36,505 nucleotides of DNA from positions 1-36,505 of the forward strand of contig CAXTKV010000026.1 in NCBI GenBank assembly GCA_964244895.1, given 5' to 3'. The stretch is from an uncultured Deinococcales bacterium. GTDB taxonomy: Bacteria > Deinococcota > Deinococci > Deinococcales > JAAFIG01. A program made the translations under genes and the position numbers. Positions 544 to 36,330 of the stretch are shown one piece after another; the stretch's first letter is position 1, and each line of letters opens with the position of its first letter. Below the pieces are notes generated by a model. The model saw only the letters and a program-made list of their open reading frames with translations, was not told where the DNA came from and ran no database searches.

Positions 544-583
544 ACCGTCCAGCACGCAAATTGAAAGATGCGTGCTGGACGGT
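544..583. repeat. Intergenic palindromic element, 40-bp core (perfect 21-bp stem 538-558/569-589)
   Basis: ACCGTC cagc ACG N14 CGT gctg GACGGT. Confidence 0.9.
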
Positions 584-605
584 GTTCTTTCGCGTTGATC
601 GGACT

Positions 606-1343
606 TCAGATCTTGGCGAGCGCGCGCACCAGCGTCGGCTGGGCGGAACCGCCGTCGGGTTCTTCGGACATCGCGACCGCCACGGCGTCCTTCGGGATCA
701 CCACGGCCACGCTCGAGCCGGAGAACACGCCCAACGAGATCGGATTCTTCGCGTTTTTCGAGATGTACCACGCCTGCCAGGTCTTGCCCGAAGGCGCATT
801 GCCGAGCGTGTGACCGACCAGCACGCGACCGTCCGGCGCGACCACGACGCGCCCGGCGGGTTTGCCATCGGTCGTCTGGAACGCCAGGGTTCTCGCGCCA
901 GCGGTCTGCTGGATGGCGATCGGATCGAGGTTCGGCATTCCGGCGTTGCGAACCAGCGCGACCACCGCCAGGCTGGCCGCCAGTGCCGCGCCCGCCGCGA
1001 GGATCGTCCAGCGCGGCGTGGAGCGGGGCCGTGGGCGACTCGAACCGGGCGAGGCTTTGGTCTGCGCAGCGACCACCCCAGGGCTCGGCGCAATCGCGAC
1101 GGCGACCGAATCGCGTTCCGCGCGGAAGCGCGCCATGACCTTCGATTCCAGATCGGCGGGCGGTTCGAACTGCGGGACGCCCCGCGCGAGTTTCGCGGTC
1201 GTCTCGAGCTGCGTGCGCAGTTCCGCTCGGGCTTCCGGGTCGCGCTCGAGCAACTGCTCGACCTCTCGCGCCTCGATGGAATCGAGCGCGTTCAGCGCGT
1301 ACAGGGTTATTTGGTCGCGGTGGTCATCGGTGAGCATCATCAT
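606..1343 (-). CDS. Anti-sigma factor, RskA (anti-sigma-K) family
   Basis: N-terminal anti-sigma domain LYALNALD..E..EVE, PPADL linker, one TM helix (WTILAAGAALAASLAVVALV), C-terminal WQAW..PISLGVF..SEEPDGGSAQPT; true start may be ATG 1337. Confidence 0.85.
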   Translation of the reverse strand: MMMLTDDHRDQITLYALNALDSIEAREVEQLLERDPEARAELRTQLETTAKLARGVPQFEPPADLESKVMARFRAERDSVAVAIAPSPGVVAAQTKASPGSSRPRPRSTPRWTILAAGAALAASLAVVALVRNAGMPNLDPIAIQQTAGARTLAFQTTDGKPAGRVVVAPDGRVLVGHTLGNAPSGKTWQAWYISKNAKNPISLGVFSGSSVAVVIPKDAVAVAMSEEPDGGSAQPTLVRALAKI

Positions 1344-1358
1344 CCTCTTGCCCTGGTG

Positions 1359-1385
1359 TACGTCAGAACATACCCGATTGGATGC
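1359..1385 (-). promoter_or_regulatory. Putative ECF (SigK-like) promoter of the anti-sigma gene
   Basis: Minus strand GCATCC-N16-ACGTA just upstream of the RBS; resembles the CATCC...CG(A/T)A SigK-type architecture. Confidence 0.45.
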
Positions 1386-1521
1386 GGAAATTTCAAAGGA
1401 GAGAACGTGTGACCTCGCGCTGTGACACTATTCGTCGTTCGAGTACCGCGCGCCAAGGCGGGCTGAGCCCTTGGTTTGACGAACAAACCTGCTGCAGCGC
1501 AAAACCCGCTAACATGCACCC

Positions 1522-3180
1522 ATGACCAAAAATGACTGGCTCTCGAGCGCCTACGCCGAGGCGATTGCGCGCGTCCCGGAGCGCAAATTGAGCTTCCAGA
1601 CGATGTCCGGTATCGAACCGCAAGCCGTCTACACGCGCGATGACCTCGAGGGCGAATCCGGCAGCCTCGAGACTGCCGACAAACTCAACATGCCCGGCGA
1701 GTACCCGTTCACGCGCGGTGTGCAGCACACCAGTTACCGGGGGCGCTTGTGGACGATGCGGATGTTCGCGGGGTTCGGCAGCGCGGAGCAGACCAACGAA
1801 CGCTTTCACGCGCTCCTCTCGGCGGGCCAGACCGGGTTATCCACCGCGTTCGATCTGCCAACCTTGATGGGCTACGACTCCGATCACCCGTACAGCGTCG
1901 GTGAGGTCGGCAAGTGCGGCGTGGCGGTGTCATCTCTGGCCGACATGGAAATTCTGTTCGGCGGCGTGAACCTGGAAACCGTCACGACCAGCATGACCAT
2001 TAATTCGCCCGCCAGCGCGATCTGGGCGATGTACCTGGCCAACGCACAGAAGCAGGGTTTCAAACTCGAACACCTGGGCGGCACGATCCAGAACGACATC
2101 CTCAAAGAATTCATCGCGCAAAAAGAATTCATCTTCCCGCCCGACCCGAGCGTCAAACTGGTGATCGACACCTTCGAATGGGCGCCGCGCAACACGCCCA
2201 AATGGAACTTCATCAGCGTCTCCGGCTATCACATTCGCGAGGCTGGCAGCACCAACGTTCAGGAACTCGCCTTTACCCTGGCGGACGGCTTTCACTACAT
2301 CGAGGAAGCCATCAGGCGCGGCCTGGACGTGGACGAGTTCGCGCCCAGGATCAGTTTTTTCTGGGATGTCCACAACGATTTCTTCGAGGAAATTGCGAAG
2401 TTTCGCGCCGCCCGACGGATCTACGCCCGCGAAATGCGCCACCGCTACAACGCCAAAAACCCGAAATCCTGGATGCTGCGCACGCACGCGCAGACGGCGG
2501 GCGTCAGCTTGACCGCGCAGCAACCGTTGAACAACATCGCTCGCGTCGCGATCCAGGCGCTGGCCGCCGTGCTGGGCGGCACGCAGAGCTTGCACACCGA
2601 TTCCTTCGACGAGGCCCTGGCCTTGCCCACCGAGGAAGCCGCGACCATCGCCCTCAGAACCCAGCAGATCATCGCGCACGAATCCGGCGTGGCCGACGTG
2701 ATCGACCCGCTGGCGGGATCGTACTACCTCGAGAAACTGACCGACGAGGTTGAAAGCCGCGCGATGGTCTACATCGAAAAGATTCGCGCCCTGGGCGGCG
2801 TGACCCGCGCGCTCGAGGCCGGGTTCTTCGCCTCTGAAATCGGCGATGCGAGCTATCGATTCCAGCAGGAAGTGGATCGCAAGGAACGGTTGATCGTCGG
2901 CGTGAATGCGTTCACGGACGACAAACCGCTGTCCGTGCCGATTCAACTGGTGGACAAGAACGTCGAACGCGTGCAATCCGAACGCCTCGAGCGCGTGCGG
3001 CGCGAGCGCGACCCGATCCGGCACCGCGACGCCCTCGAGCACCTGCGGCGCGCCGCGACGCTCGGACAGAACACCATGCCCGCCTTCCTCGAGTGCGCCC
3101 ACGCCTACGCCACCGTCGGCGAGCAGATGGACGTGCTGCGCGAGGTCTACGGCGTCTACGAGGAACCCGTCGCGATTTGA
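1522..3180 (+). CDS. B12-dependent acyl-CoA mutase large (substrate-binding) subunit, methylmalonyl-CoA mutase family, isobutyryl-CoA mutase-like
   Basis: [50 protein letters not shown] motifs; no C-terminal DxHxxG B12-binding domain; TAACAT -10 at 1510-1515. Confidence 0.92.
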
Positions 3181-3195
3181 TGGATATCGCAGGAC

Positions 3196-3245
3196 ACCGT
3201 GCGGGACGGCATTCTCGCGAGATCGGGAAATGCGTCTGGGACGGT
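3196..3245. repeat. Intergenic element, 50-bp form
   Basis: ACCGTG cggg ACG N24 CGT ctgg GACGGT, followed by cttCTCGAG. Confidence 0.75.
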
Positions 3246-3297
3246 CTTCTCGAGACTGGCTTGAGGCGAGCCGCTGGCTCACATAAGATGAGGGTAG

Positions 3298-4440: not shown

Positions 4441-4453
4441 ACACAATCGGGCT

Positions 4454-5491: not shown

Positions 5492-5551
5492 GGGTTCATG
5501 CTAGAGCCTCGAGACACCGAGCGTCCAATGGGCGCGTGAAGACACCTTTTT

Positions 5552-5628
5552 TGGTGGGCCCGCCGGGACTTGAACCCGGAACCAACGGTTTATGAGACCG
5601 CTGCTCTAACCGATTGAGCTACAGGCCC
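5552..5628 (-). tRNA. tRNA with CAT anticodon, most likely tRNA-Ile2 (lysidine)
   Basis: GGGCCTGTAGCTCAATCGGTTAGAGCAGCGGTCTCATAAACCGTTGGTTCCGGGTTCAAGTCCCGGCGGGCCCACCA: cloverleaf, encoded CCA, C4-G69/C5-G68 pairs typical of Ile2, no initiator features. Confidence 0.92.
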
Positions 5629-5671
5629 GCGCGATGTGAATCCTCGTGCCCGTCGTTCGCGGCACACGAGG

Positions 5672-5700
5672 ATCGTAGCGGCTGTGCGCGCTCGAGGCAA
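5672..5700 (-). promoter_or_regulatory. Sigma70-type promoter of the tRNA gene
   Basis: Minus strand TTGCCT-N17-TACGAT about 45 bp upstream of the tRNA. Confidence 0.65.
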
Positions 5701-5727: not shown

Positions 5728-5767
5728 ACCGTCCAGCACGCGAATTGCTTGTCGCGTCCAGGACGGT
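5728..5767. repeat. Intergenic element, 40-bp form
   Basis: ACCGTC cagc ACG N14 CGT ccag GACGGT gttCTCGAG. Confidence 0.9.
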
Positions 5768-7778: not shown

Positions 7779-7828
7779 ACCGTCCAGAACGGTGTTCTTG
7801 GTTCCTCGAGACCTGCGTCCTGAACGGT
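7779..7828. repeat. Intergenic element, 50-bp form
   Basis: ACCGTC caga ACG N24 (contains CTCGAG) CGT cctg AACGGT; left arm is itself ACCGT-N5-ACGGT. Confidence 0.75.
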
Positions 7829-9412: not shown

Positions 9413-9452
9413 ACCGTCCAGCACGCGTTCATGAATTTGTGTACTGGACGGT
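9413..9452. repeat. Intergenic element, 40-bp form
   Basis: CTCGAGaat ACCGTC cagc ACG N14 TGT actg GACGGT, 24 bp after the glnA stop. Confidence 0.85.
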
Positions 9453-9651: not shown

Positions 9652-9708
9652 ACCGTTCCAAACGCGCTTTTCTCGAGCCAATGCGCGAAACATACCGTCG
9701 TGAACGGT
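9652..9708. repeat. Intergenic element, atypical 57-bp spacing
   Basis: ACCGTT ccaa ACG N31 CGT cgtg AACGGT; right arm is a full ACCGT-N5-ACGGT palindrome. Confidence 0.65.
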
Positions 9709-11116: not shown

Positions 11117-11311
11117 TTCGCTATAAACCCAGCCGATAGGCAGAGGGCTCGAGAACCGCGTCTCAGACGGTGCTGCTGATATTGAGCGTTGAGAAATTTG
11201 CCGAGATTGCGGACGATCACCCGGACGTGCGAACCCGAACCCACTTTTGAACCCGCACGCCGTCTCGAGTCACCCTGAAGCTCACCTGTCAGAACAAGAG
11301 AGGTCAAAAAC

Positions 11312-15396: not shown

Positions 15397-15545
15397 ACCG
15401 TCCCACACGGTGCTGATCAACGAAACACCGTCCTGCACACGTTTTTAAGAAACGGTTCCTGAGTTTTCGGCGCTGGAAGGGATCTCGTTCGCTCGGGCCA
15501 ACACGTCTCAGAAAAGCCTGAACTCGAGAAACATCGTCCAGGACG
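15397..15545. repeat. Cluster of half-sites/monomers of the intergenic element
   Basis: AAGAACACCGTcccacACGGTG (15391-15412), AAACACCGTCctgcACA (core 15427, 30 bp after the first), AACATCGTCcaggACG (core 15533). Confidence 0.6.
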
Positions 15546-15680
15546 CCTAAAAACGATTTCCCGAAACCTGTCACGGTTCCGTCACGAATTCTCGACATGA
15601 GAAACCCGAATTGATAGACTCCGAGCGCTCGTTCGGAAAGCCGAAGAGGCTTTCGAGACAGCAAGACCTGAGGAGGTTGT

Positions 15681-17301: not shown

Positions 17302-17352
17302 ACCGTCCAGTACGTCGTTTCTACGAATTCAGAAACTCGCGTGCTGGACGGT
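17302..17352. repeat. Intergenic element, 51-bp form
   Basis: ACCGTC cagt ACG N25 CGT gctg GACGGT, 11 bp after the dppA stop. Confidence 0.85.
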
Positions 17353-17497: not shown

Positions 17498-18559
17498 TTG
17501 ACTGCTTACATTGCCAGACGCTTGCTCGGATTGATCCCGGTATTGTTCGGGATTTCATTGCTGGTCTTTAGCTTCGTCCACCTGATCCCCGGCGACCCCG
17601 CGCTGACCATGCTCGGCGAGCGCGCCACGCCAGAATCTACGGCTGCTGTGCGGAAGCTTCTGGGCCTGAACCAGCCGTGGTTTTTCAACCCGCAGGCCGC
17701 CGCGAAAACCGGAAACCCACTCGATTTTTTTGACGGTCAGTATTTTCGTTTCGTGGGAAACACCTTGCGCGGCAACCTGGGCGAGAGCATTTTCAGCCGG
17801 ATTCCCGTCGCTGACGAGGTCAAACGGCGCTGGCCGGCCACGTTGGAGCTTTCCATCGCCGCGATGATCTTCGCCGTCGTAGTAGGCGTTCTGATCGGCG
17901 TGCTGGCCGCGCTCCGGCGCAATTCCGTGGTGGACAACGCCAGCATGGCGCTCGCGCTGGTCGGCGTTTCGATGCCGATCTTCTGGCTCGGCATGATCCT
18001 CAAGTACATTTTCAGCGTGTACTCGCAGATCCTGCCGCCCTCGGCGCGGATCGGGGATATCTTCTCGTTGAGCTTCACGCCGCTGACGGGTTTGTACGTC
18101 CTGGACGGTTTGCTGCGCGGCCAACCGGCGGTATCCTGGGATGCGTTGTTGCACCTCTTCATGCCCGCCGTGGCGCTGGGCACGATCCCGATGGCGATCA
18201 TCGCGCGCATGACCCGCAGTGCCATGATCGAGGTGCTGAGTCAGGATTACGTCCGCACCGCCAGGGCCAAAGGCTTGCCGCAGCGCGCCGTCGTGATGAA
18301 GCACGCCCTCAGGAACGCCATGCTGCCCGTCATCACGGTGGTTGGCCTGTCGTTCGGCGGTTTGCTTTCGGGCGCGATATTGACCGAGACGATCTTTAGC
18401 TGGTCCGGCATCGGCAGCTGGATTTACGAGGGCATTCTGCAACGCGATTACCCGATCGTGCAGGGCGGCGTGATCATCGTCGCGGTCGTGTTCGTGCTGG
18501 TCAACCTGCTGGTCGATCTGTCGTACGCGCTCTTCGATCCGAGGATTCAGTACCGATGA
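17498..18559 (+). CDS. dppB: Peptide ABC transporter permease
   Basis: AAGGA RBS then TTG 17498; RRLLGLIPVL, IPGDPA, PATLEL, EAA loop DYVRTARAKGL..HALRNA, DPRI. Confidence 0.9.
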   Translation: MTAYIARRLLGLIPVLFGISLLVFSFVHLIPGDPALTMLGERATPESTAAVRKLLGLNQPWFFNPQAAAKTGNPLDFFDGQYFRFVGNTLRGNLGESIFSRIPVADEVKRRWPATLELSIAAMIFAVVVGVLIGVLAALRRNSVVDNASMALALVGVSMPIFWLGMILKYIFSVYSQILPPSARIGDIFSLSFTPLTGLYVLDGLLRGQPAVSWDALLHLFMPAVALGTIPMAIIARMTRSAMIEVLSQDYVRTARAKGLPQRAVVMKHALRNAMLPVITVVGLSFGGLLSGAILTETIFSWSGIGSWIYEGILQRDYPIVQGGVIIVAVVFVLVNLLVDLSYALFDPRIQYR

Positions 18560-19504: not shown

Positions 19505-19544
19505 ACCGTCCAGCACGCATTCTTAGATTCGTGCGCTGGACGGT
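19505..19544. repeat. Intergenic element, 40-bp form
   Basis: CTCGAGaac ACCGTC cagc ACG N14 tgc gctg GACGGT gttc, directly after the dppC stop. Confidence 0.88.
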
Positions 19545-20915: not shown

Positions 20916-20956
20916 ACCGTGCTGGACAGCGTTTGCTGGTATGCGTGCTGAACGGT
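20916..20956. repeat. Intergenic element, 41-bp form flanked by CTCGAG on both sides
   Basis: CTCGAG(20908)ac ACCGTG ctgg ACA N15 CGT gctg AACGGT gttt CTCGAG(20961). Confidence 0.8.
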
Positions 20957-22391: not shown

Positions 22392-23852
22392 TCAATGTTT
22401 AACCAGCACCATGCCTGAACGCTGCGGGACGTGACCTAAAGTGCGCTTGCCGGAGCGCACCTCGAAGCGCGTTCCGCTGAAAAAATCGATGTACACGCCG
22501 TCGTCCACGCCATCGAGTGGCACGTTGTGCGTCCTCGTGTCCGCATTGATGACCACGATGGCCGTGCTGGAACCGTCGCTCAGTTTGCGCTCGAAGGCGT
22601 AAGTCATACCGTGCGCGTGAACCGTGCGGTACGCGCCGCGCCGCAGCGCCGGAATGGATTTGCGCATCCGAATCGCGGTTCTGGTGAAGTCCAGAATTTC
22701 AATGTTCCAACGCGCTTCGTCCCAGACCATGCCGCGCCGACAATCGGGATCGCGTCCGCCCTCCAGACCGATCTCGTCGCCGTAGTAAATGCACGGCGCG
22801 CCCGGAAAGCTCATCTGCACCAACGTCATGAGTTTCAACGCGCTGACATCGTTGTCAACGATCGAGAGCACGCGCGGCGTGTCGTGCGAGCCGAGCAAAT
22901 TGAGTTGCGCCAGCGTGATCTCCCAGGGGTACAGACTGAACAAGCGCTCCGTCTCGCGCGCGAAGCGTTCGGCATCCATGCTGCCCAGGTGCTTCAAGCC
23001 GGATTCCGCCGTGATGTCCTTACGGATCGTTTTTCCGGCCAGGAACTCGTAGGTGATGGTCGTGAAGATGTAATTCATGACCGCGTCGAACTGGTCGCCG
23101 GAGAGCCAGCGTTGCGCTTCCGTCCAGATTTCACCGACGATATACGCGTCCGGGTTGGCGCGCTTGACGCGCCGCCTGAACTCCTGCCAGAAGGCATCAT
23201 CATCGATCTCGTTGGGCACGTCCAGACGCCAGCCGTCCACGCCGAATTTGATCCAGTCCTCGGCCACGCCCCACAGAAATTCGCGCACGGCAGATGAAGC
23301 CGTGTTGAACTTCGGTAAGGCCGCGTAGCCCCACCAGGCGTCGTAATTCGGGGCTTCTCGCGGGTCGTAGGCGTGCAACGGGTGTCCCTTGACGTTGAAC
23401 CAATCCAGGTACGGGCTCTGCGGCCCATTCTCGAGGATGTCGTGAAACTGAAAAAACCCCCGCGAGGCGTGGTTAAAAACACCGTCCAGCACGACCCTGA
23501 TGCCTTTGGTGTGGGCGCGCGCGATCAGTTCCTTGAGGGCCGCGTTGCCGCCCAGCATCGGATCTACGCTGCGGTAATCGTGCGTGTGGTAGCGATGGTT
23601 TGACCCGGACTGGAAGACCGGGCAGAAGTAGATCGCGTTGACGCCCAGGTTCTCGAGGTGATCGAGCTTCTCGACCACACCCAGCAAATCCCCGCCCTTG
23701 TAGCCGTGAATCGTCGGTTTCGCGTCCCACTCCTCGAGCCCACCCGACTTCAGCACGCGAGAGGACGCGGCGAAGCGATCCGGGAAGATCTGATAGAAAA
23801 TCGCGTCCTTGACCCAATCGGGTGTGCTGATGCGGTTCTGAAGGTCTGACAC
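22392..23852 (-). CDS. GH13 neopullulanase/cyclomaltodextrinase-like alpha-glycosidase
   Basis: TPDWVKDAIFYQIFPDRF, LDGVFNH, GWRLDVP, GEIW, LGSHDT, YYGDEIG..DPDCRR; no N-terminal CBM; start set at GTG 23852 from TAAGAT-N7. Confidence 0.92.
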   Translation of the reverse strand: MSDLQNRISTPDWVKDAIFYQIFPDRFAASSRVLKSGGLEEWDAKPTIHGYKGGDLLGVVEKLDHLENLGVNAIYFCPVFQSGSNHRYHTHDYRSVDPMLGGNAALKELIARAHTKGIRVVLDGVFNHASRGFFQFHDILENGPQSPYLDWFNVKGHPLHAYDPREAPNYDAWWGYAALPKFNTASSAVREFLWGVAEDWIKFGVDGWRLDVPNEIDDDAFWQEFRRRVKRANPDAYIVGEIWTEAQRWLSGDQFDAVMNYIFTTITYEFLAGKTIRKDITAESGLKHLGSMDAERFARETERLFSLYPWEITLAQLNLLGSHDTPRVLSIVDNDVSALKLMTLVQMSFPGAPCIYYGDEIGLEGGRDPDCRRGMVWDEARWNIEILDFTRTAIRMRKSIPALRRGAYRTVHAHGMTYAFERKLSDGSSTAIVVINADTRTHNVPLDGVDDGVYIDFFSGTRFEVRSGKRTLGHVPQRSGMVLVKH

Positions 23853-24334
23853 GCGGTGCATCTTATCAAGGCCCAATCAAACGCACCTGCCGCCGCCCAT
23901 CGAGCCCGGTCACTCCGTGCGGAACGCCCGCCGCGAATTGACGGCTCAATGGGCTCGAGGTTTCGCTTCCAGCACGGTGTTCCAGGAGCCTCGTTACTGG
24001 GTCGTGACCGGAGCGGCGTTACCTTGCTGCTCGAGGCGCACACCATCAGGAGGTTCAGATGAACCGTTAGCGCACTGCGGCCATTGATCCAACCACAATT
24101 TCTATCAGCCGCATTTCTTCACGAATCGATGCCCTGCCCTCAGTTTTCAATTTTTTCAAAAATCTGAATAACCCGCGCTGGACGGTATATTAAACGCGTA
24201 GGGCTCGGGCAGATCCAGCAACGTGCAGGATCTTCACGGTACGAACCGGATTGCACGATTCGGGCAACAGACGCTCAACCCTCGAACACTTTTTTGTGAA
24301 GGCGCGCAATGCCTTCAACCACCCGGAGGTCAAC

Positions 24335-24796: not shown

Positions 24797-24836
24797 ACCG
24801 TCCAGCGCGCAGAATTGATATTGCGTGCTGGACGGT
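24797..24836. repeat. Intergenic element, 40-bp form
   Basis: ACCGTC cagc GCG N14 CGT gctg GACGGT between convergent genes. Confidence 0.88.
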
Positions 24837-25977: not shown

Positions 25978-25983
25978 GTGCGG

Positions 25984-26661
25984 GTGACCGCGCTCTTTGA
26001 ACGCATCGCCGCCGCTTACGTGCGCGGCAAGATCGGCTCAATTCTGCCAGAAGCGCTTTCCGGTTCGGCGCTCGAGACCTTGACCCCCGATGACCTGAGC
26101 GCGATCCTCGAGGCCGGACGCGAGGCCGGGTTGCGGTTGCACCGCTTCAAACGCACGATGGGTCTGGCGCGCGTGGAACGCGTGCTGGGAGCGCTGCGCG
26201 GTCTGGCTCCGATGCGTTTGCTGGACATCGGTTCCGGTCGGGGCGCGTTTTTGTGGCCGCTCCTGGACGCGATGCCGTGGCTCGAGATCACCGCCTGCGA
26301 CACCCTGGCGCACCGCGTGGCGGACATTCAAGCTGTCAGCGACGGCGGATTTCCCAACCTGACAGCGCGGCTCGAGGACGCCACCGAACTGTCCTTCCCG
26401 GACTCGAGTTTCGACGCGGTGACGGCGCTCGAAGTCCTCGAACACATTCCCGACGCGCAGCGCGCGGTTTCGGAGGCCGTCCGGGTCGCGCGGCGGTTCG
26501 TGATCGCCAGCGTGCCATCGCAGCCGGATGACAACCCGGAGCACATCCACCTCTTTTCCAATACGGACCTGACCCGAATGTTCCAAGCGGCGGGCACGGT
26601 GCGCGTCAGTCTGGATGCCGTGCTGAACCACTCGATCGTCGTGGCGCGGGTCGAGGCGTGA
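25984..26661 (+). CDS. Class I SAM-dependent methyltransferase
   Basis: LLDIGSGRG motif I, EDATELSFPDSSFDAV, LEVLEH, EHIHLF; stop overlaps the ligase start (GTGA). Confidence 0.88.
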   Translation: MTALFERIAAAYVRGKIGSILPEALSGSALETLTPDDLSAILEAGREAGLRLHRFKRTMGLARVERVLGALRGLAPMRLLDIGSGRGAFLWPLLDAMPWLEITACDTLAHRVADIQAVSDGGFPNLTARLEDATELSFPDSSFDAVTALEVLEHIPDAQRAVSEAVRVARRFVIASVPSQPDDNPEHIHLFSNTDLTRMFQAAGTVRVSLDAVLNHSIVVARVEA

Positions 26662-27437
26662 CCCCGCCGATTCGCAAATTCCCGCGCACACCGCACCTGG
26701 AAGGCTCGAGAATCCAGCCCGGCGATTCGCCGAACAGCGTCCCGTTTCACGAAATTCGCGGTCAGACCGTGGTGGTCGAGGAAAAAATGGATGGCGCGAA
26801 CGCCGCGATCTCGTTCGACGGCGGCAGATTGCTGCTTCAATCCAGAGGGCATTACCTGATCGGCGGCCCCCGAGAGCGCCACTTCGCACGGTTCAAAACC
26901 TGGGCGAACAGCCTGGTCGATGCCTTGCAGCCCGTGCTGGGCGAGCGCTACGTGATCTACGGCGAGTGGGTTTACGCCAAGCACACGATTTTCTACGACC
27001 GATTGCCGCATTACTTTCTGGTCTTCGACGCGCTGGACACCGTCCGGGACGCGTTCCTGGATACGCCGTCCAGGACGGCGTTGCTCGAGAATCTACCGCT
27101 CGCTTCCGTGCCAATTCTGGCCACGGGTGCGTTCCAGACGCCGGAATCGCTCTCGGCGCTGCTGGGCCGCTCGAGTTTCATCGGTCGGGATCACATCGCG
27201 GCGTTGCGCGAATCCTGCCTTCGGGACGGCCTCGAGCCCGCGCGAGTGGCGTCCGAAACGGACTCTTCCGAACTGATGGAAGGGCTCTACATCAAGCTCG
27301 AGCGGGACGGCGCGGTTCAGGCGCGCTACAAGTTCGTGCGCGCCAGCTTCCTTCAGGCCGTCACGCAGTCCGGTTCGCACTGGCTCGAGCGCCCGATCGT
27401 ACCGAACCTGCTCGCGCCGGGACGCTCCATCTGGTGA
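26658..27437 (+). CDS. ATP-dependent RNA ligase family protein (adenylation domain only)
   Basis: KFPRTPHL, motif I EEKMDGAN, QSR, motif III YGEW, IIIa FLVFD, IV MEGLYIK, V YKFV. Confidence 0.88.
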   Translation: MTPPIRKFPRTPHLEGSRIQPGDSPNSVPFHEIRGQTVVVEEKMDGANAAISFDGGRLLLQSRGHYLIGGPRERHFARFKTWANSLVDALQPVLGERYVIYGEWVYAKHTIFYDRLPHYFLVFDALDTVRDAFLDTPSRTALLENLPLASVPILATGAFQTPESLSALLGRSSFIGRDHIAALRESCLRDGLEPARVASETDSSELMEGLYIKLERDGAVQARYKFVRASFLQAVTQSGSHWLERPIVPNLLAPGRSIW

Positions 27438-27456
27438 ACCGGAGAGTCCGGGAAAT

Positions 27457-27507
27457 ACCGTCTGGGACGATCAACATTGAATTCTCGAGGATACTGTCGT
27501 GGACGGT
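27457..27507. repeat. Intergenic element, 51-bp form
   Basis: ACCGTC tggg ACG N25 (contains CTCGAG) TGT cgtg GACGGT. Confidence 0.8.
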
Positions 27508-27573
27508 ATTTTTGAGGGTACGGCTCGAATTCTTCGACGATGGCGAACGTACCCGCGCGGGTAAGCTGTCCTG

Positions 27574-28707
27574 GTGAACGACTGGACGTTTCCCCTCTGC
27601 CCGGACGCCCCATCCTGGCGGATCGACTGGGACGCGATCGTCGTCCGCCACGCGTGGCTGACGGCCCTTGGTCGGACGCCCCAGAATCCCGTCCATCACG
27701 CCGAAGGCGACGTGCTGATCCACACCAGGATGGTGACACAAGCGCTGGTCGCCAACCCCGAATGGCGCGATCTGGCGCCGACGCCGCGCTCGATTTTGTT
27801 CGCGGCAGCCCTGCTGCACGATATCGGCAAGCCCGACAAGACCATCACGGAAGACGACGGGCGCATCACCTCCAAGGGTCACGCCTCGGCGGGTGCGCGC
27901 ACCGCGCAACGCATCCTGATGCTCGAGATGGACGCCCCGGTTCCGTTCGAGGCGCGCCTCGCCATCGTGGCGCTGGTGCGTCACCACGGGCTGCCGTTGT
28001 GGTTCCTCGAGCGCGCCGACCCTGCCCGCGCCGCGATCGAGGCGAGCCTGCGGGTGCGCCCCGACTGGATCGCGCTGCTGGCCGAAGCCGACGCCAGGGG
28101 CCGCATCTGCCGCGACGGGAACGAACTCGTGGCTCGGGTCGGGCTGTTCCGCGAGTTCTGCGCGGAACGCGACTGCCTGATCCAACCGTTCCCGTTCGCG
28201 TCCGACCACAGCCGCTTCGTGTACTGCCGCACCCCGGGCCGCGACCCCGCCTACCGCGCTTTCGACGACACCAAAGGCGCCGTTTTGATGATGTCCGGCC
28301 TGCCCGGTTCCGGCAAGGACACGTACCTGAAAACCCACCACCCGGACTGGCCGAGCGTCCATTTGGACGGTATCCGCCACGAATTGGGCGTGTCGTGGAC
28401 GGACAATCAAGGCCCCGTCTTACAGCTCGCCAGGGAGCGCGCCAGGGGCTTCTTGCGCAACCGCACGAGCTTCGCCTGGAACGCCACCAACCTGACGCGC
28501 AGCGTGCGCGAGGGGCTGATCGGCCTGTTCACCGATTACGGCGCGCGCACCGAGATCGCGTACCTCGAGCCCTGCCTCGAGAAGATATTTCGACAGAACC
28601 GCGAACGCGAGGCGGTCGTCAACCAGAGCGTCATGCTCGATCTCGTCGCGAAGCTGGAAGTGCCCGACCTGACCGAAGCCCAGACCGTCCTGTACTCGAC
28701 GCAATGA
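27574..28707 (+). CDS. HD-domain phosphoesterase fused to P-loop polynucleotide kinase (HD-Pnk)
   Basis: HHAEGDVLIHT, LLHDIGKP, GHA, RHHG, EAD (HD); GLPGSGKDT, LDGIR, NATN, R..R lid (Pnk/AAA_33); TAAGCT-N6-GTG. Confidence 0.88.
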   Translation: MNDWTFPLCPDAPSWRIDWDAIVVRHAWLTALGRTPQNPVHHAEGDVLIHTRMVTQALVANPEWRDLAPTPRSILFAAALLHDIGKPDKTITEDDGRITSKGHASAGARTAQRILMLEMDAPVPFEARLAIVALVRHHGLPLWFLERADPARAAIEASLRVRPDWIALLAEADARGRICRDGNELVARVGLFREFCAERDCLIQPFPFASDHSRFVYCRTPGRDPAYRAFDDTKGAVLMMSGLPGSGKDTYLKTHHPDWPSVHLDGIRHELGVSWTDNQGPVLQLARERARGFLRNRTSFAWNATNLTRSVREGLIGLFTDYGARTEIAYLEPCLEKIFRQNREREAVVNQSVMLDLVAKLEVPDLTEAQTVLYSTQ

Positions 28708-28810: not shown

Positions 28811-29851
28811 CTATCGCGCCTTGATCTTCGTCCAGGCCGCGTCGTAGAGCTTCAACGACGCACCCAGATCGGTCGCAAACTCGAGCGATTTGAGGGTCGC
28901 GTCCGCCGGGTAAATCACGGGGTTGTCGCGATCCGCTTTCGGAATGAAAGCCTTTGCAGCCTCGTTCGGCGTGCTGGCGCGGACGCTGGTCGCGTTCCTG
29001 GCGGCGACTTTCGCGTCCAGGATGAAGTTGATGAACTGGTGCGCCAGATCGCTGTTCGGCGATTGCGCCGGGATCGCCATGTTGTCCAACGCGATCTCTG
29101 CGCCTTCTTTGGGGATGAAGAAGCCGATATTCTTGTCCTCTTCCATGCCCTTCAAGGCCTCGACGTTGTACGTCACGGCCATGACGGCCTGCTTGGACAG
29201 GACGCGGTTTTTCCCTTCGGGGCTGCCCGTGAAACCCAGGCTTCTGGATTTCGCGTCGATCAGCAAGTCGATGGCTTTCTTGATGTCATCCGTGCTGGTC
29301 GAGTTGTAGGACTTCCCGAGGTATTTGAGCGCGATCCCGATCATGCTTCTCGAGTCGTCCAGCATGGTGAACGTGCCGGGCTGCTTGGATTTGTCAAAAA
29401 AGAGCGCCCACGATGGCACCAGGTTCTTGATCTTGTCCTTGCGGTAGGTCACGCCCGTCAGGCTAAACAGGTATCCAGCGCTGTACGTGTTGCCCGGATC
29501 GAAGCTCGGGTTGGCGAAGCTCTTGGCCAGGTTTTTCAGGTTCGGGATTTTACCCAGATCCAACGGTTTCAACAGGTTCTGTTTGATCATCACTGGGATC
29601 ACGTAGCCGCTCGGCACGACCACGTCGTACTGCTTGGTTCCGCCCGCCGCGAGCTTGGCCAGCAAATCCTCGTTCGATTCGTATAAGGACACGTTGACCT
29701 TCGCGCCGAACTGCTTCTCGAAATCCTTGATTACGCCAGAGTCGATGTATTCCGACCAGATGAACAGGTTCAGCTTTTTCTGTTGCGCTCCGACGGTGGC
29801 CGCCAGCAGTGCCGCACTGAGCGCGGCCATAACCCAGACTCGTTTTTTCAC
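28811..29851 (-). CDS. potD: Polyamine ABC transporter substrate-binding protein (second copy)
   Basis: AAGGAG RBS then GTG 29851; signal peptide; LNLFIWSEYID, YESNE, YDVVVPS, PKEG..DNMAIP, FINFILD. Confidence 0.88.
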   Translation of the reverse strand: MKKRVWVMAALSAALLAATVGAQQKKLNLFIWSEYIDSGVIKDFEKQFGAKVNVSLYESNEDLLAKLAAGGTKQYDVVVPSGYVIPVMIKQNLLKPLDLGKIPNLKNLAKSFANPSFDPGNTYSAGYLFSLTGVTYRKDKIKNLVPSWALFFDKSKQPGTFTMLDDSRSMIGIALKYLGKSYNSTSTDDIKKAIDLLIDAKSRSLGFTGSPEGKNRVLSKQAVMAVTYNVEALKGMEEDKNIGFFIPKEGAEIALDNMAIPAQSPNSDLAHQFINFILDAKVAARNATSVRASTPNEAAKAFIPKADRDNPVIYPADATLKSLEFATDLGASLKLYDAAWTKIKAR

Positions 29852-29955
29852 GTTGATCTCCTTCACATTGCCCGCCTCGAGGGTGCGCGGTCGTGGCTGA
29901 ATCTTACGTCTCGAGGTGGTGCGGGTTCGTTAGACAGGTTCGGTTTTATCCGAAG

Positions 29956-29993
29956 ATCGTCCAGCACGCAATTAAAACGCTTTGCTGGACGGT
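29956..29993. repeat. Intergenic element, degenerate 38-bp form
   Basis: ATCGTC cagc ACG ... gctg GACGGT gttt; further degenerate ACCATC-N4-ACG half-sites at 30060 and 30096. Confidence 0.7.
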
Positions 29994-30119: not shown

Positions 30120-31166
30120 TTACTTCGATTTGATCTGCGTCCAGGCCGCGTCGTACAAGCGCTGCGAGGTACCCACGTCCGCCACGAACTCGAGCTTCGA
30201 CATGACCGCATCCGGCGGGTACATGCCGGGATTCTTGCGGTCGCCGGGCGTGATGAAGGGCTTGGCAGCCTCGTTCGGGGTGGCGTAACGGTTGTAGTTG
30301 GACAACCTCGCGCCGATCTTCGGGTCGAGCATGAAGTTCACGAACTTGTTGGCCATGTCCGCGTTGGGCGCGCCCGCTGGGATCGCCATGCTGTCGGTGA
30401 AGATCACGCTGCCTTCTTTGGGCACGGCGTAACCCACGTTCGGGCTCTCGGACTGAATCTTGATGCAATCCCCGCTGTACGCGACCGCGTAGGCGGCTTG
30501 CCCGCCCGCGACCTTGTTGCGGCCCGCGACGCCGTTGTCGAAACCCAGGCTGCGCCCCTTGGCGTCCACCATCGCGGCGACGGCGCTTTTCAGGTCATCC
30601 GCCGCGGTGGTGTTGACGCTCTTGCCCAGGTACTTCAGCACCGGCCCGAGCATCTCGCGGGTGGAGTCCATCATCAAGAATGGGCCTTTTTGCTTGGATT
30701 TGTCGAAGAACAAATTCCACGAGACGTCCGCTTCCTTGACTTTGCGCTTGTCATACACGATTCCGACCGTACCCCACTGGTACGCGGCGGTGTAGGTGTT
30801 GCCGGGGTCGTAGCTCGGGTTCTGGAATTTCTTGGAGAGGTTCTTCAGGTTCGGCACTTTGGATTTGTCGAACGGCTGCACCAGTTTTTTCTCAATCAGC
30901 AAGGGCACGATGTACTGACCGGGCACGATCACGTCGTACTGCTTGGAGCCGCCCGCCTGGAGCTTGGCGACCAGATCTTCGTTGGATTCGTAGAGCGTGT
31001 AGTTGACCTTGACGCCCTCTTTTTTCTCGAAATCCTTCAAGATCTGCGGGTCGATGTACTCCGACCAGTTGAAGACGTTCAGGACTTTCGTTTCAGCGCG
31101 CACGTACTCGAGCCCAACGCTGCTGGCCGCGAGGCATCCCAGGGCGATCAAGAATCTGCGTTTCAT
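30120..31166 (-). CDS. potD: Polyamine ABC transporter substrate-binding protein
   Basis: GGAGG RBS then ATG 31166 (ORF track 30120..32135 is over-extended); LNVFNWSEYID, YESNE, YQWGTVGI, YSGD, PKEGS. Confidence 0.9.
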   Translation of the reverse strand: MKRRFLIALGCLAASSVGLEYVRAETKVLNVFNWSEYIDPQILKDFEKKEGVKVNYTLYESNEDLVAKLQAGGSKQYDVIVPGQYIVPLLIEKKLVQPFDKSKVPNLKNLSKKFQNPSYDPGNTYTAAYQWGTVGIVYDKRKVKEADVSWNLFFDKSKQKGPFLMMDSTREMLGPVLKYLGKSVNTTAADDLKSAVAAMVDAKGRSLGFDNGVAGRNKVAGGQAAYAVAYSGDCIKIQSESPNVGYAVPKEGSVIFTDSMAIPAGAPNADMANKFVNFMLDPKIGARLSNYNRYATPNEAAKPFITPGDRKNPGMYPPDAVMSKLEFVADVGTSQRLYDAAWTQIKSK

Positions 31167-31237
31167 GGTTCCCTCCGTGTACTTCGGCAAGACGCGTTGC
31201 TCGAGCATCCCAGGCCCGAGGTTGACAGAAGCCTGAC

Positions 31238-32125: not shown

Positions 32126-32198
32126 TAGCGATCACCTTTTCTCGAGAACGCGTGAAAAGACCGTTCTTGCTCGAATGACAGCACCTGACGGGCTACTC

Positions 32199-32238
32199 GC
32201 GCTCCTGCACACGAACTCGAGCATGCGTCCAGGACGGT
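32199..32238. repeat. Intergenic element, 40-bp form with decayed left arm
   Basis: GCGCTC ctgc ACA N14 (contains CTCGAG) CGT ccag GACGGT gttctc; extra half-site TGT gtga GACGGT attCTCGAG at 32337-32358. Confidence 0.65.
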
Positions 32239-32400
32239 GTTCTCTTGAGATTCGATGCGCGGCATTGGCTCCAGCGCGAGGGCGAACACCAGGTTCGCCC
32301 CTCCAGCATTGGTGCGTCGCTGGTTCTTATTTTGATTGTGTGAGACGGTATTCTCGAGCATCAATGTTCGAGAAATCACCCTCGAGACGAAGCTCTTCTC

Positions 32401-32428
32401 CCTGACCTCTGACCCCTGACCCCTGACC
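32401..32428. repeat. Heptamer tandem repeat (YCTGACC)x4
   Basis: cctgacc tctgacc cctgacc cctgacc immediately downstream of the potB stop. Confidence 0.8.
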
Positions 32429-32432
32429 AGCT

Positions 32433-33374: not shown

Positions 33375-33394
33375 CAGCGATCACCCTCGAGAAC

Positions 33395-33445
33395 ACCGTC
33401 TGGGACGGCATTCCGATCATGCTCGAGAATCGCGTGCGGGACGGT
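33395..33445. repeat. Intergenic element, 51-bp form
   Basis: CTCGAGaac ACCGTC tggg ACG N25 (contains CTCGAG) CGT gcgg GACGGT. Confidence 0.85.
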
Positions 33446-33457
33446 TGTCCGGTGAGG

Positions 33458-33539
33458 CTCGAGCCTCGAGCCGCAAGCCGCAAGGGCCAGATTATCCCTT
33501 GCCGATCGGTGTCTGACCTCTGACCCCGTGACTCGTGAC
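33458..33539. repeat. Two heptamer tandem runs
   Basis: ctcgagc ctcgagc cgcaagc cgcaagg (33458-33485) and tctgacc tctgacc ccgtgac tcgtgac (33512-33539) downstream of the potA stop. Confidence 0.65.
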
Positions 33540-33543
33540 CGAC

Positions 33544-34758
33544 TCACACGCCCTCGAGTTCTTCGGCGCGCAACGCCTCTCCGCCCGAGATGACCACCAG
33601 GTGCTGAGGCGGCAAGTGCGCCACGACCGTCTCGCCGGGTTCAAAATCGTGACTTTCCAGGCCGGTGTTCATGACCTCGACGGACAGCTCGAAATGGTCT
33701 GTGCACAGCAGACGGTATTCGTTTTCGGCGCCGGAATAGATTTCGTCGGTGACGGTGGCTTTCAGCTGGTTGGGTGCGCTTCCGAAACCCTGCCGGGAAA
33801 TCTGGACTTTCTCCGGTCGGATCGAGAGCCGCACAGAACCTGATGAAGGCAGCGAATCTGCCACCACGAGCTCGCCCAGGTCGGTCTTGACGCGATTCGC
33901 GCCCGTGACCTTGCCGTCCAGCAGGTTGGATGATCCCAGGAACTTCGCCACGAACGGGGTTGCGGGGCGCTCGTAGATTTCCTCGCAGCCGCCGAGTTGC
34001 TCGATCACGCCCTTGTTCATGACCGCGATCCGGTCGGACATGGTCAGCGCCTCTTCCTGATCGTGGGTCACGAAGATAAACGTCAATCCCAACTGCTGTT
34101 GCAAGCGCATCAGTTCGACTTGCAACGACATCCGCAATTTTCTGTCCAGCGCGCTCAGCGGTTCGTCCAGCAGCAAGACCTGCGGTTCGTTGACCAGCGC
34201 CCGCGCCAGCGCCACGCGTTGCCGCTGACCGCCGGAAAGTTCCGCCGTCCGGCGTTTGGCGAACGCGCCGATCTCGACCATTTCGAGGGCGCGCTCGACC
34301 CTGGATTTGATTTCAGCGTTCGGAACCTTGCGCATTTTCAGTCCAAACGCCACGTTGTCCGCGACCGTCATGTGCGGGAAGAGCGCATAAGACTGAAAGA
34401 CCGTGTTGACGCTGCGCTGGTTGGGCGGCAGTTTGCTGACCTCCTGACCGCGCAAGAAGACCTCTCCGGCGTCCTGGAACTCGAAGCCCGCCAGAATCCG
34501 CAGCAGGGTCGTCTTGCCGCACCCCGACGGCCCCAGCAGACTGAAGAACTCGCCGCGCCGTATCTCGAGGTTGATGCCCTTCAGGACGGGGTTCTCTCCG
34601 AAGGATTTGGTGATGTCCTTGAAGTGAACGTCCACCGCGCTCTCGAGCTGCCGTTTGCGCCGTTCGGCCTGGTTGATCGCGGTCACGTCTGCCTCCGATG
34701 GCCTGAAATCTCGAGCGCTGCCGTTGTCCCTTCGCTCATGGACGGGATTATGCGTCAT
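33544..34758 (-). CDS. potA: Polyamine ABC transporter ATP-binding protein
   Basis: GPSGCGKTT, NTVFQSYALFPHM, LSGGQRQRVALARAL, LLDEPLSALD, THDQEEAL, TOBE-like C-terminus. Confidence 0.94.
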   Translation of the reverse strand: MTHNPVHERRDNGSARDFRPSEADVTAINQAERRKRQLESAVDVHFKDITKSFGENPVLKGINLEIRRGEFFSLLGPSGCGKTTLLRILAGFEFQDAGEVFLRGQEVSKLPPNQRSVNTVFQSYALFPHMTVADNVAFGLKMRKVPNAEIKSRVERALEMVEIGAFAKRRTAELSGGQRQRVALARALVNEPQVLLLDEPLSALDRKLRMSLQVELMRLQQQLGLTFIFVTHDQEEALTMSDRIAVMNKGVIEQLGGCEEIYERPATPFVAKFLGSSNLLDGKVTGANRVKTDLGELVVADSLPSSGSVRLSIRPEKVQISRQGFGSAPNQLKATVTDEIYSGAENEYRLLCTDHFELSVEVMNTGLESHDFEPGETVVAHLPPQHLVVISGGEALRAEELEGV

Positions 34759-34824
34759 GCCGAGCCGATCTGTACAGCTAGGCGGGACGACCCGATCCGA
34801 ATCGGATGACGAAAACCCGAGAAC

Positions 34825-34865
34825 ACCGTCTGGGACGATATCCTCGAGATTGCGTGTGGGACGGT
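34825..34865. repeat. Intergenic element, 41-bp form
   Basis: ACCGTC tggg ACG N15 (contains CTCGAG) CGT gtgg GACGGT, 4 bp from the aminotransferase stop. Confidence 0.85.
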
Positions 34866-34869
34866 GTAT

Positions 34870-36228
34870 TTACGCGAAGGCTTCGGTTAGCGCGTCCGTG
34901 GCGATGCTGACGATTTCGTCCACCTGATCGGCGGTGATGATCAACGGCGGCGAGAACGCGAAGCCCGTGTCGTTGCAGCGCGCGATCAGGCCGCGTTTTC
35001 GCGTGGCCGCCTGCAACTTGCCGCCGACGCCCGCGCTCGGATCGAAAGACTTCTTGGATTCTTTGTCCTGCACGGTCTCAATCAGCACCATCAAGCCCTT
35101 GCCGCGCACGTTCCCGACGTTCGGGTGCGCCTCGAGCGTTTTCATGCCCGCCAGCAGACGCTCGCCCATGAATGCCGCGTTCCCCGGCAGATCCTCGCGC
35201 TCGATCAACCCGATGTTCACGAGCGCGACCGCGCACGCGACCGGATGACCGGAGTAGGTGAAGCCGTGCATGAACATCCGATCCGGTTCCAGCAGCACGG
35301 CGTTGATCTCGTCCGTGATGCCGACCGCCCCGAGCGGGATGTAACCGCTCGTGATGCCCTTGGCGAGCGCCACGATGTCGGGCTGGAAGTGGTACGTCTG
35401 ATGGCCGAACATGCCGCCCGTGCGCCCGAAGCCCGTGATGACCTCGTCCGCGATCAAGAGAATGCCGTGCTTTTTCAGGATCGGCGCGATGGCCTGCCAG
35501 TACCCATCTGGCGGTGGCACGACCCCGCCTGCGCCCTGCACGGGCTCGCCGATGAAAGCCGCGATCGTCTCGGCTCCTTCGTTGGCGATCGTGTCCTCGA
35601 GTTCCTGCGCGAGCTTCGCCACGAATTCCGCGTCCGTCAAGCCCGCGCCGTTCCGGTAGGCGTGAGGTGCCGACAGGTGAATGAAGCCCGGAGCCAACGG
35701 CCCGAAATCCTTGTGGTACGCCGGAATGCCCGTCGCCGCCAGGCTCGCGTTGGCGATGCCGTGGTAGGCCATCAGCCTGGACAGCACCTTGACGCGCTCT
35801 GGCTGGCCTTTTAAGGCCCAGTAGTACCGCGCGATCTTGATGGCGGTCTCGTTCGATTCCGCGCCGCCGGACGTGAACTGAAAGTGGTTGATGGTGCCCG
35901 GAATCATGCTCGCCAGCTTCGAGGCGAGTTCAATCGTGGGTGGGCTGGCCAGCCCGAAGAAGTTCGGCACGAACGCCACTTCCTCGATTTGCTTTCTGGC
36001 CGCCTCCGCCAGCACCTTGCGCCCGTGCCCGACGTTGACGTTCCACAAGCCCGCGAAGCCGTCCAGGTAACGCTTTCCGGTCGTGTCCCAGAGGTACAGG
36101 CCCTCGCCTCTGGCCAGCACCAGCGGCCCGGTTTTCGCGTGCCTGTGCAGGTTCGTGACGGGATGTAGGATGTGCGCGATGTCCTGCGCGATCAGCGCTT
36201 CCGTGTTCCAGCTTTGCGTGGCAGTCAT
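34870..36228 (-). CDS. Class III PLP aminotransferase (putrescine/omega-amine transaminase-like)
   Basis: YLDGFAGLWNVNVGHGR, SGGAESNE, GEPVQGAGG, IADEVITGFGRTG, PDIVALAKG, HGFTYSGHP; lies upstream of potABCD. Confidence 0.9.
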   Translation of the reverse strand: MTATQSWNTEALIAQDIAHILHPVTNLHRHAKTGPLVLARGEGLYLWDTTGKRYLDGFAGLWNVNVGHGRKVLAEAARKQIEEVAFVPNFFGLASPPTIELASKLASMIPGTINHFQFTSGGAESNETAIKIARYYWALKGQPERVKVLSRLMAYHGIANASLAATGIPAYHKDFGPLAPGFIHLSAPHAYRNGAGLTDAEFVAKLAQELEDTIANEGAETIAAFIGEPVQGAGGVVPPPDGYWQAIAPILKKHGILLIADEVITGFGRTGGMFGHQTYHFQPDIVALAKGITSGYIPLGAVGITDEINAVLLEPDRMFMHGFTYSGHPVACAVALVNIGLIEREDLPGNAAFMGERLLAGMKTLEAHPNVGNVRGKGLMVLIETVQDKESKKSFDPSAGVGGKLQAATRKRGLIARCNDTGFAFSPPLIITADQVDEIVSIATDALTEAFA

Positions 36229-36290
36229 GGCTCGAGTCTACGGTTTTGGACGCTCGGGGCACAATCCGTTCATGTCTTCTCTTCGAGAAC

Positions 36291-36330
36291 ACCGTCGTAC
36301 ACGCATTCTCGAGATTGCGTCTGGGACGGA
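36291..36330. repeat. Intergenic element, 40-bp form
   Basis: ACCGTC gtac ACG N14 (contains CTCGAG) CGT ctgg GACGGA. Confidence 0.8.

Follow-up and report, generated by a model that had tools for sequence, protein, structure and literature searches.

What kind of signal is a short, paired and inverted repeat that recurs along an otherwise ordinary bacterial contig? The question is raised by a 36,505-nucleotide stretch of DNA from an uncultured Deinococcales bacterium (hereafter the window), which is contig C26 of a source genome of 5.12 Mb in 328 contigs, 91% complete. GlnA matches and the composition of the order put this genome in Deinococcales. The genes of the window are ordinary metabolic and transport genes, and an Rfam scan returned tRNA only. 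A sequence-only reading of the window had described a family of paired arms, with cores mostly 40 or 50 bp long, and had taken them for sites in DNA at which proteins bind rather than for RNA hairpins. The genome-wide analysis demonstrates that the family is real and non-random and not an artefact, and indicates that it consists of lineage-specific, helically phased and paired DNA sites written in place.

Sites were detected with an arm matrix at a threshold of at least 14 bits against an order-4 Markov background. Two paired sites are called a dyad, and the length classes of 40/41 bp and 50/51 bp correspond to site centres approximately 25 and 35 bp apart. Over the whole genome the matrix gave 5,734 strand matches versus 118 expected. 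The genome contains 4,598 distinct sites. Pairing gives 1,739 dyads, and 1,631 of these fall in the 40/41-bp and 50/51-bp classes (803 of 40 bp, 131 of 41 bp, 514 of 50 bp and 183 of 51 bp). Lengths of 39 bp (18 dyads), 52 bp (11) and 55–58 bp (26 in total) are rare. The earlier statement that nothing lies between 42 and 49 bp is true of the window, but genome-wide only 47 and 48 bp are empty, as 30 dyads measure 42–46 bp and 20 measure 49 bp. Among close site pairs, 20–60 bp apart in the same intergenic region, 1,552 of 1,644 (94%) have a centre distance of 24–27 or 34–37 bp, compared with 22% under random placement. The genome-wide distribution of arm spacing had been named in advance as a check on the helical phasing, and its major peaks, with means of 25.1 and 35.2 bp, are one helical turn apart. 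The minor classes (means of 30.3 and 41.3 bp; dyads of 45/46 and 56 bp) include half-turn classes that hold mostly re-oriented sites. Length quantisation is real genome-wide, with minor half-turn classes. All 16 cores described in the window, as well as the symmetric monomers at 7779, 9694 and 15397, were recovered with the same coordinates and lengths; the core at 32199 has the length described, but has a decayed left arm, and the matrix accepts the right arm only. The spacers between arms are AT-rich and nearly all different, with 744 distinct among 801 in the 40-bp class and 514 among 514 in the 50-bp class.

The site is pseudo-palindromic, with the consensus RAACACCGTC-N3-SACG. It can be described as a gapped palindrome, in which a strong half (AACACCGTC, or AAGACCGTC) is combined with a second strong half or with a distinct weak half, the latter being GACGC with A/T-rich bases after it. 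In most sites only the 3-bp CGT/ACG dyad and a weak inner half are present. The best-conserved blocks lie about 9–10 bp apart around the site centre, a spacing that would suit a dimer with two reading heads. Dyads end in GAGAAC...GTTCTC and their centre is unconserved. Spacing depends on polarity: at 25/26/35/36 bp, 945 of 1,013 unambiguous polar pairs point inwards and 68 are direct or outward, whereas at 30/31 bp 25 of 27 are direct or outward and two inward (Fisher p 7e-26). The 45-bp class consists mostly of re-oriented sites. Relative to transcription, no orientation bias was found in the 40-bp class and a weak one in the 50-bp class (184 versus 227, p 0.04). No replication polarity of sites was found against a per-contig skew proxy.

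The dyads lack the signature of a structure selected in RNA. G·U mismatches are as frequent as A·C mismatches on the transcribed strand (311:310, n = 346, and 243:242, n = 244; 554:552 in total), in contrast to 37:6 in a control set of 171 terminator-like hairpins from the same genome. The 3′ T content equals the 5′ A content, with no 3′ T excess on the transcribed strand, and no Rfam match for the dyad was obtained. Predicted folds are stable, with a mean minimum free energy of about −27 and −25 kcal/mol on the better strand; however, swapping in random arms barely alters the energy of the 50-bp class (−25.3 versus −25.2 kcal/mol). The reading of the dyad as a helically phased site at the DNA level is supported by the missing G·U bias, the missing orientation bias in the 40-bp class and the polarity-dependent spacing, and further by element length being kept in relatives while the spacer turns over and by copies in genes that involve no insertion. 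Terminator-like hairpins are scarcer after genes followed by a dyad (49 of 922, 5.3%) than after other genes (141 of 1,698, 8.3%; p 0.004). Among 60 symmetric solo sites, 15 have a 3′ T-run and three a 5′ A-run, so a minority of copies may double as terminators.

Thirty-five dyads lie within called genes, as do about 170 single sites, and seven of the dyad-bearing genes were set against homologues. No element-sized insertion is present in five of the seven (PheT, RNA ligase, NuoG, LpxD and E2); MetH is ambiguous, and the comparison for a molybdopterin oxidoreductase, with its dyad in the tail region, is uninformative. PheT is gap-free at the site relative to five of five repeat-free relatives from three genera, yet both arms are present 36 bp apart. 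Its right arm arose by mostly synonymous changes and its left arm involves several amino acid replacements, while an ancestral-like spacer is kept. The RNA ligase encoded in the window has no indel at the dyad versus seven homologues, the NuoG region comprises 80 amino acids versus 79 and 77 in homologues, LpxD has gained only three amino acids over its nearest homologues and the E2 linker does not exceed that of relative G001 in length. Coding interiors contain 220 matches of at least 16 bits versus 33–49 in six synonymous shuffles, an approximately 5-fold excess. Coding-interior dyads of at least 12 bits number 25 versus 0–1 in the shuffles, and all 25 are at phased distances. Codon choice for Asp-Gly is shifted after V-x, where GACGGT is used in 81 of 315 cases (25.7%), versus 869 of 6,401 cases elsewhere (13.6%, p 3e-8). 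No target-site duplication was detected in 1,627 elements at any of the offsets and lengths tried (best z 2.6).

Most dyads are intergenic (1,668 of 1,739, 96%). In tandem junctions they lie at a median of 22–27 bp after the stop codon, and the occupancy of gaps longer than 45 bp is highest in convergent junctions (58–71%), intermediate in tandem and lowest in divergent ones (3–43%). A strict transcription roadblock is unlikely, since many dyads lie in narrow junctions between co-directional genes, with 199 of the 1,021 tandem dyads at most 40 bp from the next start. Junctions tend to hold a single cluster: convergent gaps of 100–200 bp with zero, one and two clusters number 26, 149 and 7, versus 74, 67 and 30 under a Poisson distribution. 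The 2,653 clusters of the genome have a mean gap of 1.7 kb and a coefficient of variation (CV) of 0.67, as opposed to 1.27 for random intergenic placement. Sites inside genes fill long gaps. The density of interior sites is 89–93 per Mb in genes longer than 2 kb and 37–40 per Mb in shorter ones, and around the 82 genes of less than 2 kb that have one, the site-free gaps are comparatively long (median 2,657 versus 1,996 bp; reached in 0 of 2,000 length-matched draws). Junction occupancy climbs from 0.56 to 0.81 with the length of the flanking genes. Sixteen contigs longer than 8 kb are dyad-free, and those inspected are island-like as judged by gene content and missing sites only. A BREX BrxC gene on an element-poor contig (C139:8898-12425) has an internal 45-bp dyad.

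The distribution of the family among relatives is narrow. The 40-bp pattern has 674 matches in the source genome and 0–4 in any one of the 250 genomes sampled from the order; the 50/51-bp pattern has 515 versus 0–12 in 18 members of the family, a family made up mostly of metagenome-assembled genomes in which the source genome is the sole member of its genus compared. A stricter pattern was found at six single loci among 185,579 species, with no match in viral contigs. No different dyad family was seen in six related genomes (5–68 kb each). An otherwise repeat-free relative, G005, carries one perfect 40-bp dyad between two co-directional hydrolase-like genes (contig C557; L009:1660-1705), which is possibly transferred DNA or the result of mis-binning. 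An initial pattern gave no metagenome match. At least 118 metagenome stretches were matched later, mostly by chance; three have a full dyad and a fourth a decayed one. Among the matches listed, all four metagenome contigs that align around an element have it at the orthologous place, in relatives 70–90% identical. In these four pairs the element lengths are 40/40, 40/40, 50/50 and 51/50 bp, the spacers are identical at only 6/12, 4/12, 13/22 and 8/23 positions and the flanks contain indels. In a weakly matching sequencing run, judged at the level of alignments, pieces of a relative about 90–94% identical span the dyads at 17302 and 19505 with four and two gaps, a hint that positions are kept. 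No RNA sequencing runs were among the matches listed.

We consider it probable that the dyads are bound as double-stranded DNA by a protein that is sequence-specific and dimeric, with cooperation between two such dimers, and that they are built by substitution at about one cluster per junction. A dimeric protein would dock on the pseudo-palindromic site, and two dimers would bind cooperatively on one helical face. Base substitutions would create the sites where they stand, with a cluster about every 1.7 kb; selection or drive would favour approximately one cluster per junction, and point changes would fill in where junctions are distant. Judged from the sequence patterns, it is likely that a protein binds, that it does so as a dimer of dimers and that selection or drive favours regular coverage. 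As for purpose, a chromosome-wide structural or boundary role at junctions, in nucleoid or supercoil organisation, is tentatively placed ahead of a mark for uptake or self-recognition. The repeat is possibly a new kind of chromosome-wide system. A form of it that is conceivable, though less likely than not, is a lattice in which a putative protein occupies about 2,650 places, one for each junction, as pairs of phased dimers and insulates or folds transcription units or marks self DNA. Its mechanism would have no described counterpart, and selection for regular coverage would be powerful enough to change the codons and amino acids of essential genes, pheT among them.

Several observations weigh against this interpretation. 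The repeat is confined to one genus-level lineage, which is surprising for a core architectural system. No lineage-specific DNA-binding candidate was found in the source genome and no binding protein was identified there. Intergenic clusters are no more evenly spaced than under a one-per-junction null (CV 0.68 versus 0.68), and the one-per-junction pattern could also stem from deletion between adjacent copies. All gene-based counts carry the caveat that the 4,518 genes were called with our own hexamer model, and the orthologue comparisons are small (four intergenic elements and seven of 35 intragenic dyads). MetH is 19 amino acids longer at the site than in two of four relatives and equal to or three longer than the other two, so an insertion is compatible with it. 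Identical spacers are in excess in the 40-bp class (86 pairs versus 29 ± 8 under a Markov null), as are near-identical ones in the 50-bp class (27 versus 5 at distance 2), and these excesses imply some copying or conversion between loci. Seven identical whole-core pairs at unlinked loci (mean 1.6 and maximum 9 in 200 shuffles) argue against a pure substitution model, and a weak phased partner accompanies 172 of the 727 intergenic solo sites, a sign of decay. The arms of the 40/41-bp class also co-vary. In this class 34% of 932 elements have the same central 5-mer in both arms, where 15.5% is expected, rare variants included, and in the 50/51-bp class 11.3% of 697 elements do, where 8.6% is expected; after orienting, the values are 37 versus 18% at 40 bp, 12 versus 8% at 50 bp and 9 versus 8% at 51 bp. 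The sequence-only reading that arms vary non-compensatorily is roughly right for the 50/51-bp class and wrong for the 40/41-bp class. Since the concordant elements have no common spacers, the match between arms arose in place, and the concordance may have come about incidentally, through conversion at the DNA level between inverted repeats that lie close together.

The search for a binding protein covered several classes. HU genes number three, unremarkable beside 1–3 in relatives. A codon-bias screen for small basic proteins gave a weak signal, and 20 candidates were scanned in Pfam; two small basic candidates proved to be family-wide in relatives, hence not lineage-specific, and the Atlas gave only unnamed Deinococcota clusters. 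A family of proteins of about 70 amino acids with no Pfam match (C30:14466-14687, with paralogues on C267, C176, C37 and C170) occurs in 1–14 copies per genome of the family. Rho (PF07497) was not found in the source genome and is present in 17 of 18 relatives; a loss of Rho was considered and set aside, as an assembly gap is most likely given that the gene that comes after rho in relatives is cut at the start of C149 (C149:1-1170) and the orthologue of the upstream neighbour is also missing.

The same protein-recognised site could instead be a mark for DNA uptake or self-recognition, spread by molecular drive in the manner of the DNA uptake sequences (DUS) of Neisseria and the uptake signal sequences (USS) of Pasteurellaceae. 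Fragments with a phased pair would then enter cells and recombine preferentially. This purpose, which falls within the interpretation favoured above, appears doubtful. In-place formation, the codon excess, about one cluster per 1.7 kb, the absence from islands and the lineage restriction all match DUS (PMC2397512; here and below, comparisons refer to parts of the cited papers). A weak point in the same direction is the number of ComEA-like helix-hairpin-helix matches, eight (on C225, C115, C240, C39, C206 and C179) versus 1–5 in 18 relatives; several of these proteins are small and secreted-looking. For DUS, however, one copy suffices and inverted pairs act as terminators (PMC2397512), whereas the pairs described here keep a helical phase, lack a G·U bias and lie between genes in 96% of cases. 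A dedicated search, with most subscription journals outside its scope, found no paper on uptake sequences in Deinococcus or Thermus.

It is unlikely that the dyads are a non-autonomous mobile repeat, that is, a repetitive extragenic palindrome (REP), its inverted doublet (REPIN) or a tiny miniature inverted-repeat transposable element (MITE), copied by a transposase and decaying neutrally, with the two lengths reflecting two masters or the phase needs of paired ends. The position is REP-like (22–27 bp after the stop; convergent above tandem above divergent), and paired sites outscore solos (23.1 versus 20.6 bits), as in REPIN doublets. In REPINs, too, spacer length is better conserved than spacer sequence (PMC3116915). 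The excess of near-identical spacers, the seven identical unlinked whole cores and the lineage restriction point the same way. Mobility is contradicted by the five of seven genes with no element-sized insertion, by the missing target duplication and by the direct and outward pairs with spacings of their own. Neither a Y1 transposase (PF01797, Pfam) nor a serine recombinase (PF00239) nor IS110 was found in the source genome. With none of the 11 tyrosine-recombinase matches bracketed by dyads either, the suggestion of a recombinase-type site found no support. A filled/empty-site model for a tyrosine integrase needs identity of the central 5-mer in direct orientation, which is not enriched (1.8 versus 2.6% and 4.4 versus 4.6%). 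No insertion sequence (IS) ending in dyad sites was seen among the 90 longest of 232 repeats of at least 90 bp. DDE_Tnp_1 has five matches, three of them on element-poor contigs. IS elements often remain unassembled, and at 91% completeness a transposase or other enzyme could be absent from the assembly.

A link to a REP-associated tyrosine transposase (RAYT) was rejected: the single NF047646 match is below the cut-off and carries a different, GTAG repeat. This RAYT-like gene (L019:1405-1971) has a GTAG palindrome at its start and another inside the gene. The genome also has a second repeat family, about 145 bp long and REPIN-like, made up of an inverted pair of GTAG-tagged palindromes with a conserved interior and present in at least 51 copies (e.g., C123:3456-3615). 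With its conserved interior it is a useful contrast to the phased dyads.

The hexamer CTCGAG is hyper-abundant in the source genome (21,883 copies, 4.3 per kb), within genes mostly in frame as Leu-Glu. It occurs at 3.8–7.0 per kb in all six relatives sampled and is a HIP1-like word for this family, HIP1 of cyanobacteria being a single 8-mer palindrome created in place and spread through genes. Many other palindromic hexamers are strongly depleted. CTCGAG peaks 13.5 bp from site centres and is found on both flanks of a dyad more rarely than expected.

A non-adaptive writer of sites would be a HIP1-like, methyl- or protein-directed process of repair or conversion that turns near-matches beside an already bound site into sites, at the distance of an enzyme footprint, with no benefit to the host. 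In-place formation, arm concordance free of G·U bias in elements with unrelated spacers, and the peak of the family-wide CTCGAG beside the site would suit it. It is nevertheless improbable, as the CTCGAG excess is family-wide and the dyad is not, blind conversion predicts neither gap filling nor one cluster per junction, and no such enzyme was identified in the source genome. A role as an RNA hairpin, for bidirectional termination or for stabilising mRNA 3′ ends, is very improbable: stable predicted folds, the position after stops, the co-variation of arms in the 40-bp class, the scarcer terminator-like hairpins after dyad genes and the T-run bias of symmetric solos speak for it, and against it stand the G·U to A·C parity, the indifference of 50-class energy to random arms, the 10-bp quantisation and polarity-dependent spacing that it leaves unexplained, the 199 tandem dyads close to the next start and the missing Rfam match.

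The sites of the window are listed in Table 1.

Table 1. Dyads and single sites in the window ("overlooked" refers to the sequence-only reading).
Position	Feature	Context or remark
544..583	40-bp dyad, two inward sites, centres 25 bp apart	3′ end of RskA-like gene
3196..3245	50-bp dyad	after methylmalonyl-CoA mutase gene
5728..5767	40-bp dyad	
7779..7828	50-bp dyad, left site fully symmetric	
9413..9452	40-bp dyad, right site weak (12.9 bits)	after glnA
9652..9708	57-bp dyad, minor class, centres 42 bp apart	
11157..11171	single weak site	after periplasmic binding protein gene
15397..15441	two direct-orientation sites (15397, 15427), centres 30 bp apart, half-turn class	pair overlooked
15533..15547	single site	
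17302..17352	51-bp dyad	between ABC binding-protein gene and next co-directional gene
18095..18109	single site	inside gene 17498-18559; overlooked
19505..19544	40-bp dyad	upstream of aroA
20916..20956	41-bp dyad	between aroA and msrA
23481..23495	single strong site (23.7 bits)	inside alpha-amylase-family gene, VVLDGVF on minus strand; overlooked
23964..23978	single site	
24172..24186	single weak site	
24797..24836	40-bp dyad	between convergent genes
27039..27079	41-bp dyad, peptide TVRDAFLDTPSRTA	inside RNA-ligase-family gene; overlooked
27457..27507	51-bp dyad	
29956..29993	38-bp dyad, 2 bp short, right site degenerate	
32199..32238	40-bp dyad, left site decayed, right site 28.4 bits	
32335..32349	single site	
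33395..33445	51-bp dyad	between ABC ATPase gene and next co-directional gene
34825..34865	41-bp dyad	
36291..36330	40-bp dyad	

Two further features of the window can be mentioned. A methyltransferase gene, the RNA-ligase-family gene and an HD/AAA_33 gene are clustered at 25978-28707, which we take to resemble an RNA end-healing or repair set. Two tandem paralogous genes for solute-binding proteins (28811-29866 and 30120-31166) are 1,309 bp apart and 70–78% identical in stretches.

Palindromic repeats that occur in large numbers are commonly classed as REPs or MITEs and taken for inserted hairpins. The dyad family is REP-like by position and otherwise unlike them: it is phased as protein-binding sites are, written into existing DNA and controlled in density. 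Were a cognate protein confirmed, the family would represent one of two things: a sequence-specific nucleoid organiser whose sites outnumber those of the matS or SlmA type about 100-fold, or an independent signal of the DNA-uptake type that occurs outside Neisseriaceae and Pasteurellaceae. Either outcome would offer a testable case of a genome-wide DNA code arising within one genus, for which the 25/30/35/41-bp spacing rule provides ready-made probes.

A literature search, with most subscription journals outside its scope and figures and supplements excluded, found no paper on this repeat or on comparable phased dyads. The sites of matS/MatP, SlmA, Noc and parS are palindromic, are recognised by dimeric proteins and have a chromosome-scale role, in tens of copies and regionally; the dyad family differs from them in its approximately 4,600 sites, about one cluster per junction, fixed-phase pairs and restriction to one genus-level lineage. 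It is like HIP1 in being made in place and in occurring in coding DNA, and the HIP-like CTCGAG adjoins the dyad site; it is unlike HIP1 in that the site is a gapped palindrome of 15–23 bp, paired, phased and mostly intergenic. Integron attC sites have RYYYAAC...GTTRRRY ends, form cassette arrays and vary in length. They were rejected as a model because the dyads end in GAGAAC...GTTCTC, lie among housekeeping genes in all three orientations and have quantised lengths. Intrinsic terminators were rejected as well, as the dyads have neither a G·U-tolerant stem nor a 3′ U-tract. The target-site duplication of a MITE is absent. The attP and attB sites of large serine integrases also fall into two classes of inverted repeats about 10 bp apart in length, at 40–50 bp (PMC3783163). 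This likeness is judged a coincidence, since there is no serine recombinase, no conserved centre or crossover dinucleotide, and the 45-bp class consists mainly of re-oriented sites, not of inward hybrids.

The likeness to REPs, REPINs and bacterial interspersed mosaic elements (BIMEs) goes further, as all are abundant short intergenic palindromes that form inverted doublets, lie after stops, are enriched in convergent junctions, are taxonomically patchy and occasionally occur in frame (PMC3733652). The dyads share with REPs the extragenic position after stops, the preference for convergent and tandem junctions and the inverted doublets. They lack, however, the unpaired GTAG or CGTC tag before an 8–9-bp stem (PMC3733652); CGTC lies within the paired arm of the dyad and not, as judged from the text and Table 1 of PMC3733652, as the tag by a 5–13-bp stem-loop. 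Further differences from REPs and REPINs are the missing G·T bias, the missing linked RAYT, the in-gene copies with no insertion and the two lengths one turn apart with unrelated spacers. As to compensatory change in a hairpin, the arms agree in the 40/41-bp class and little in the 50/51-bp class. The missing RAYT alone is not decisive, as the CGTC families of REPs likewise have no dedicated transposase (PMC3733652).

DUS arise by replacement, lie inside genes in permissive parts of the core genome and are missing from recently acquired DNA (PMC2397512). The dyad sites have in common with DUS and USS the thousands of copies of a short word, the kilobase spacing and the lineage-specific sequence (PMC2397512). 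They likewise originate by replacement, exceed the synonymous expectation in coding DNA, follow the core genome at kilobase spacing and are absent from islands. Unlike DUS, which are non-palindromic 10–12-mers of which a single copy is enough (PMC2397512), they are pseudo-palindromic, form phased pairs with polarity-dependent spacing and are 96% intergenic. By this comparison, the evolutionary behaviour of the dyad sites is closest to that of DUS and USS, and a role in uptake would be conceivable.

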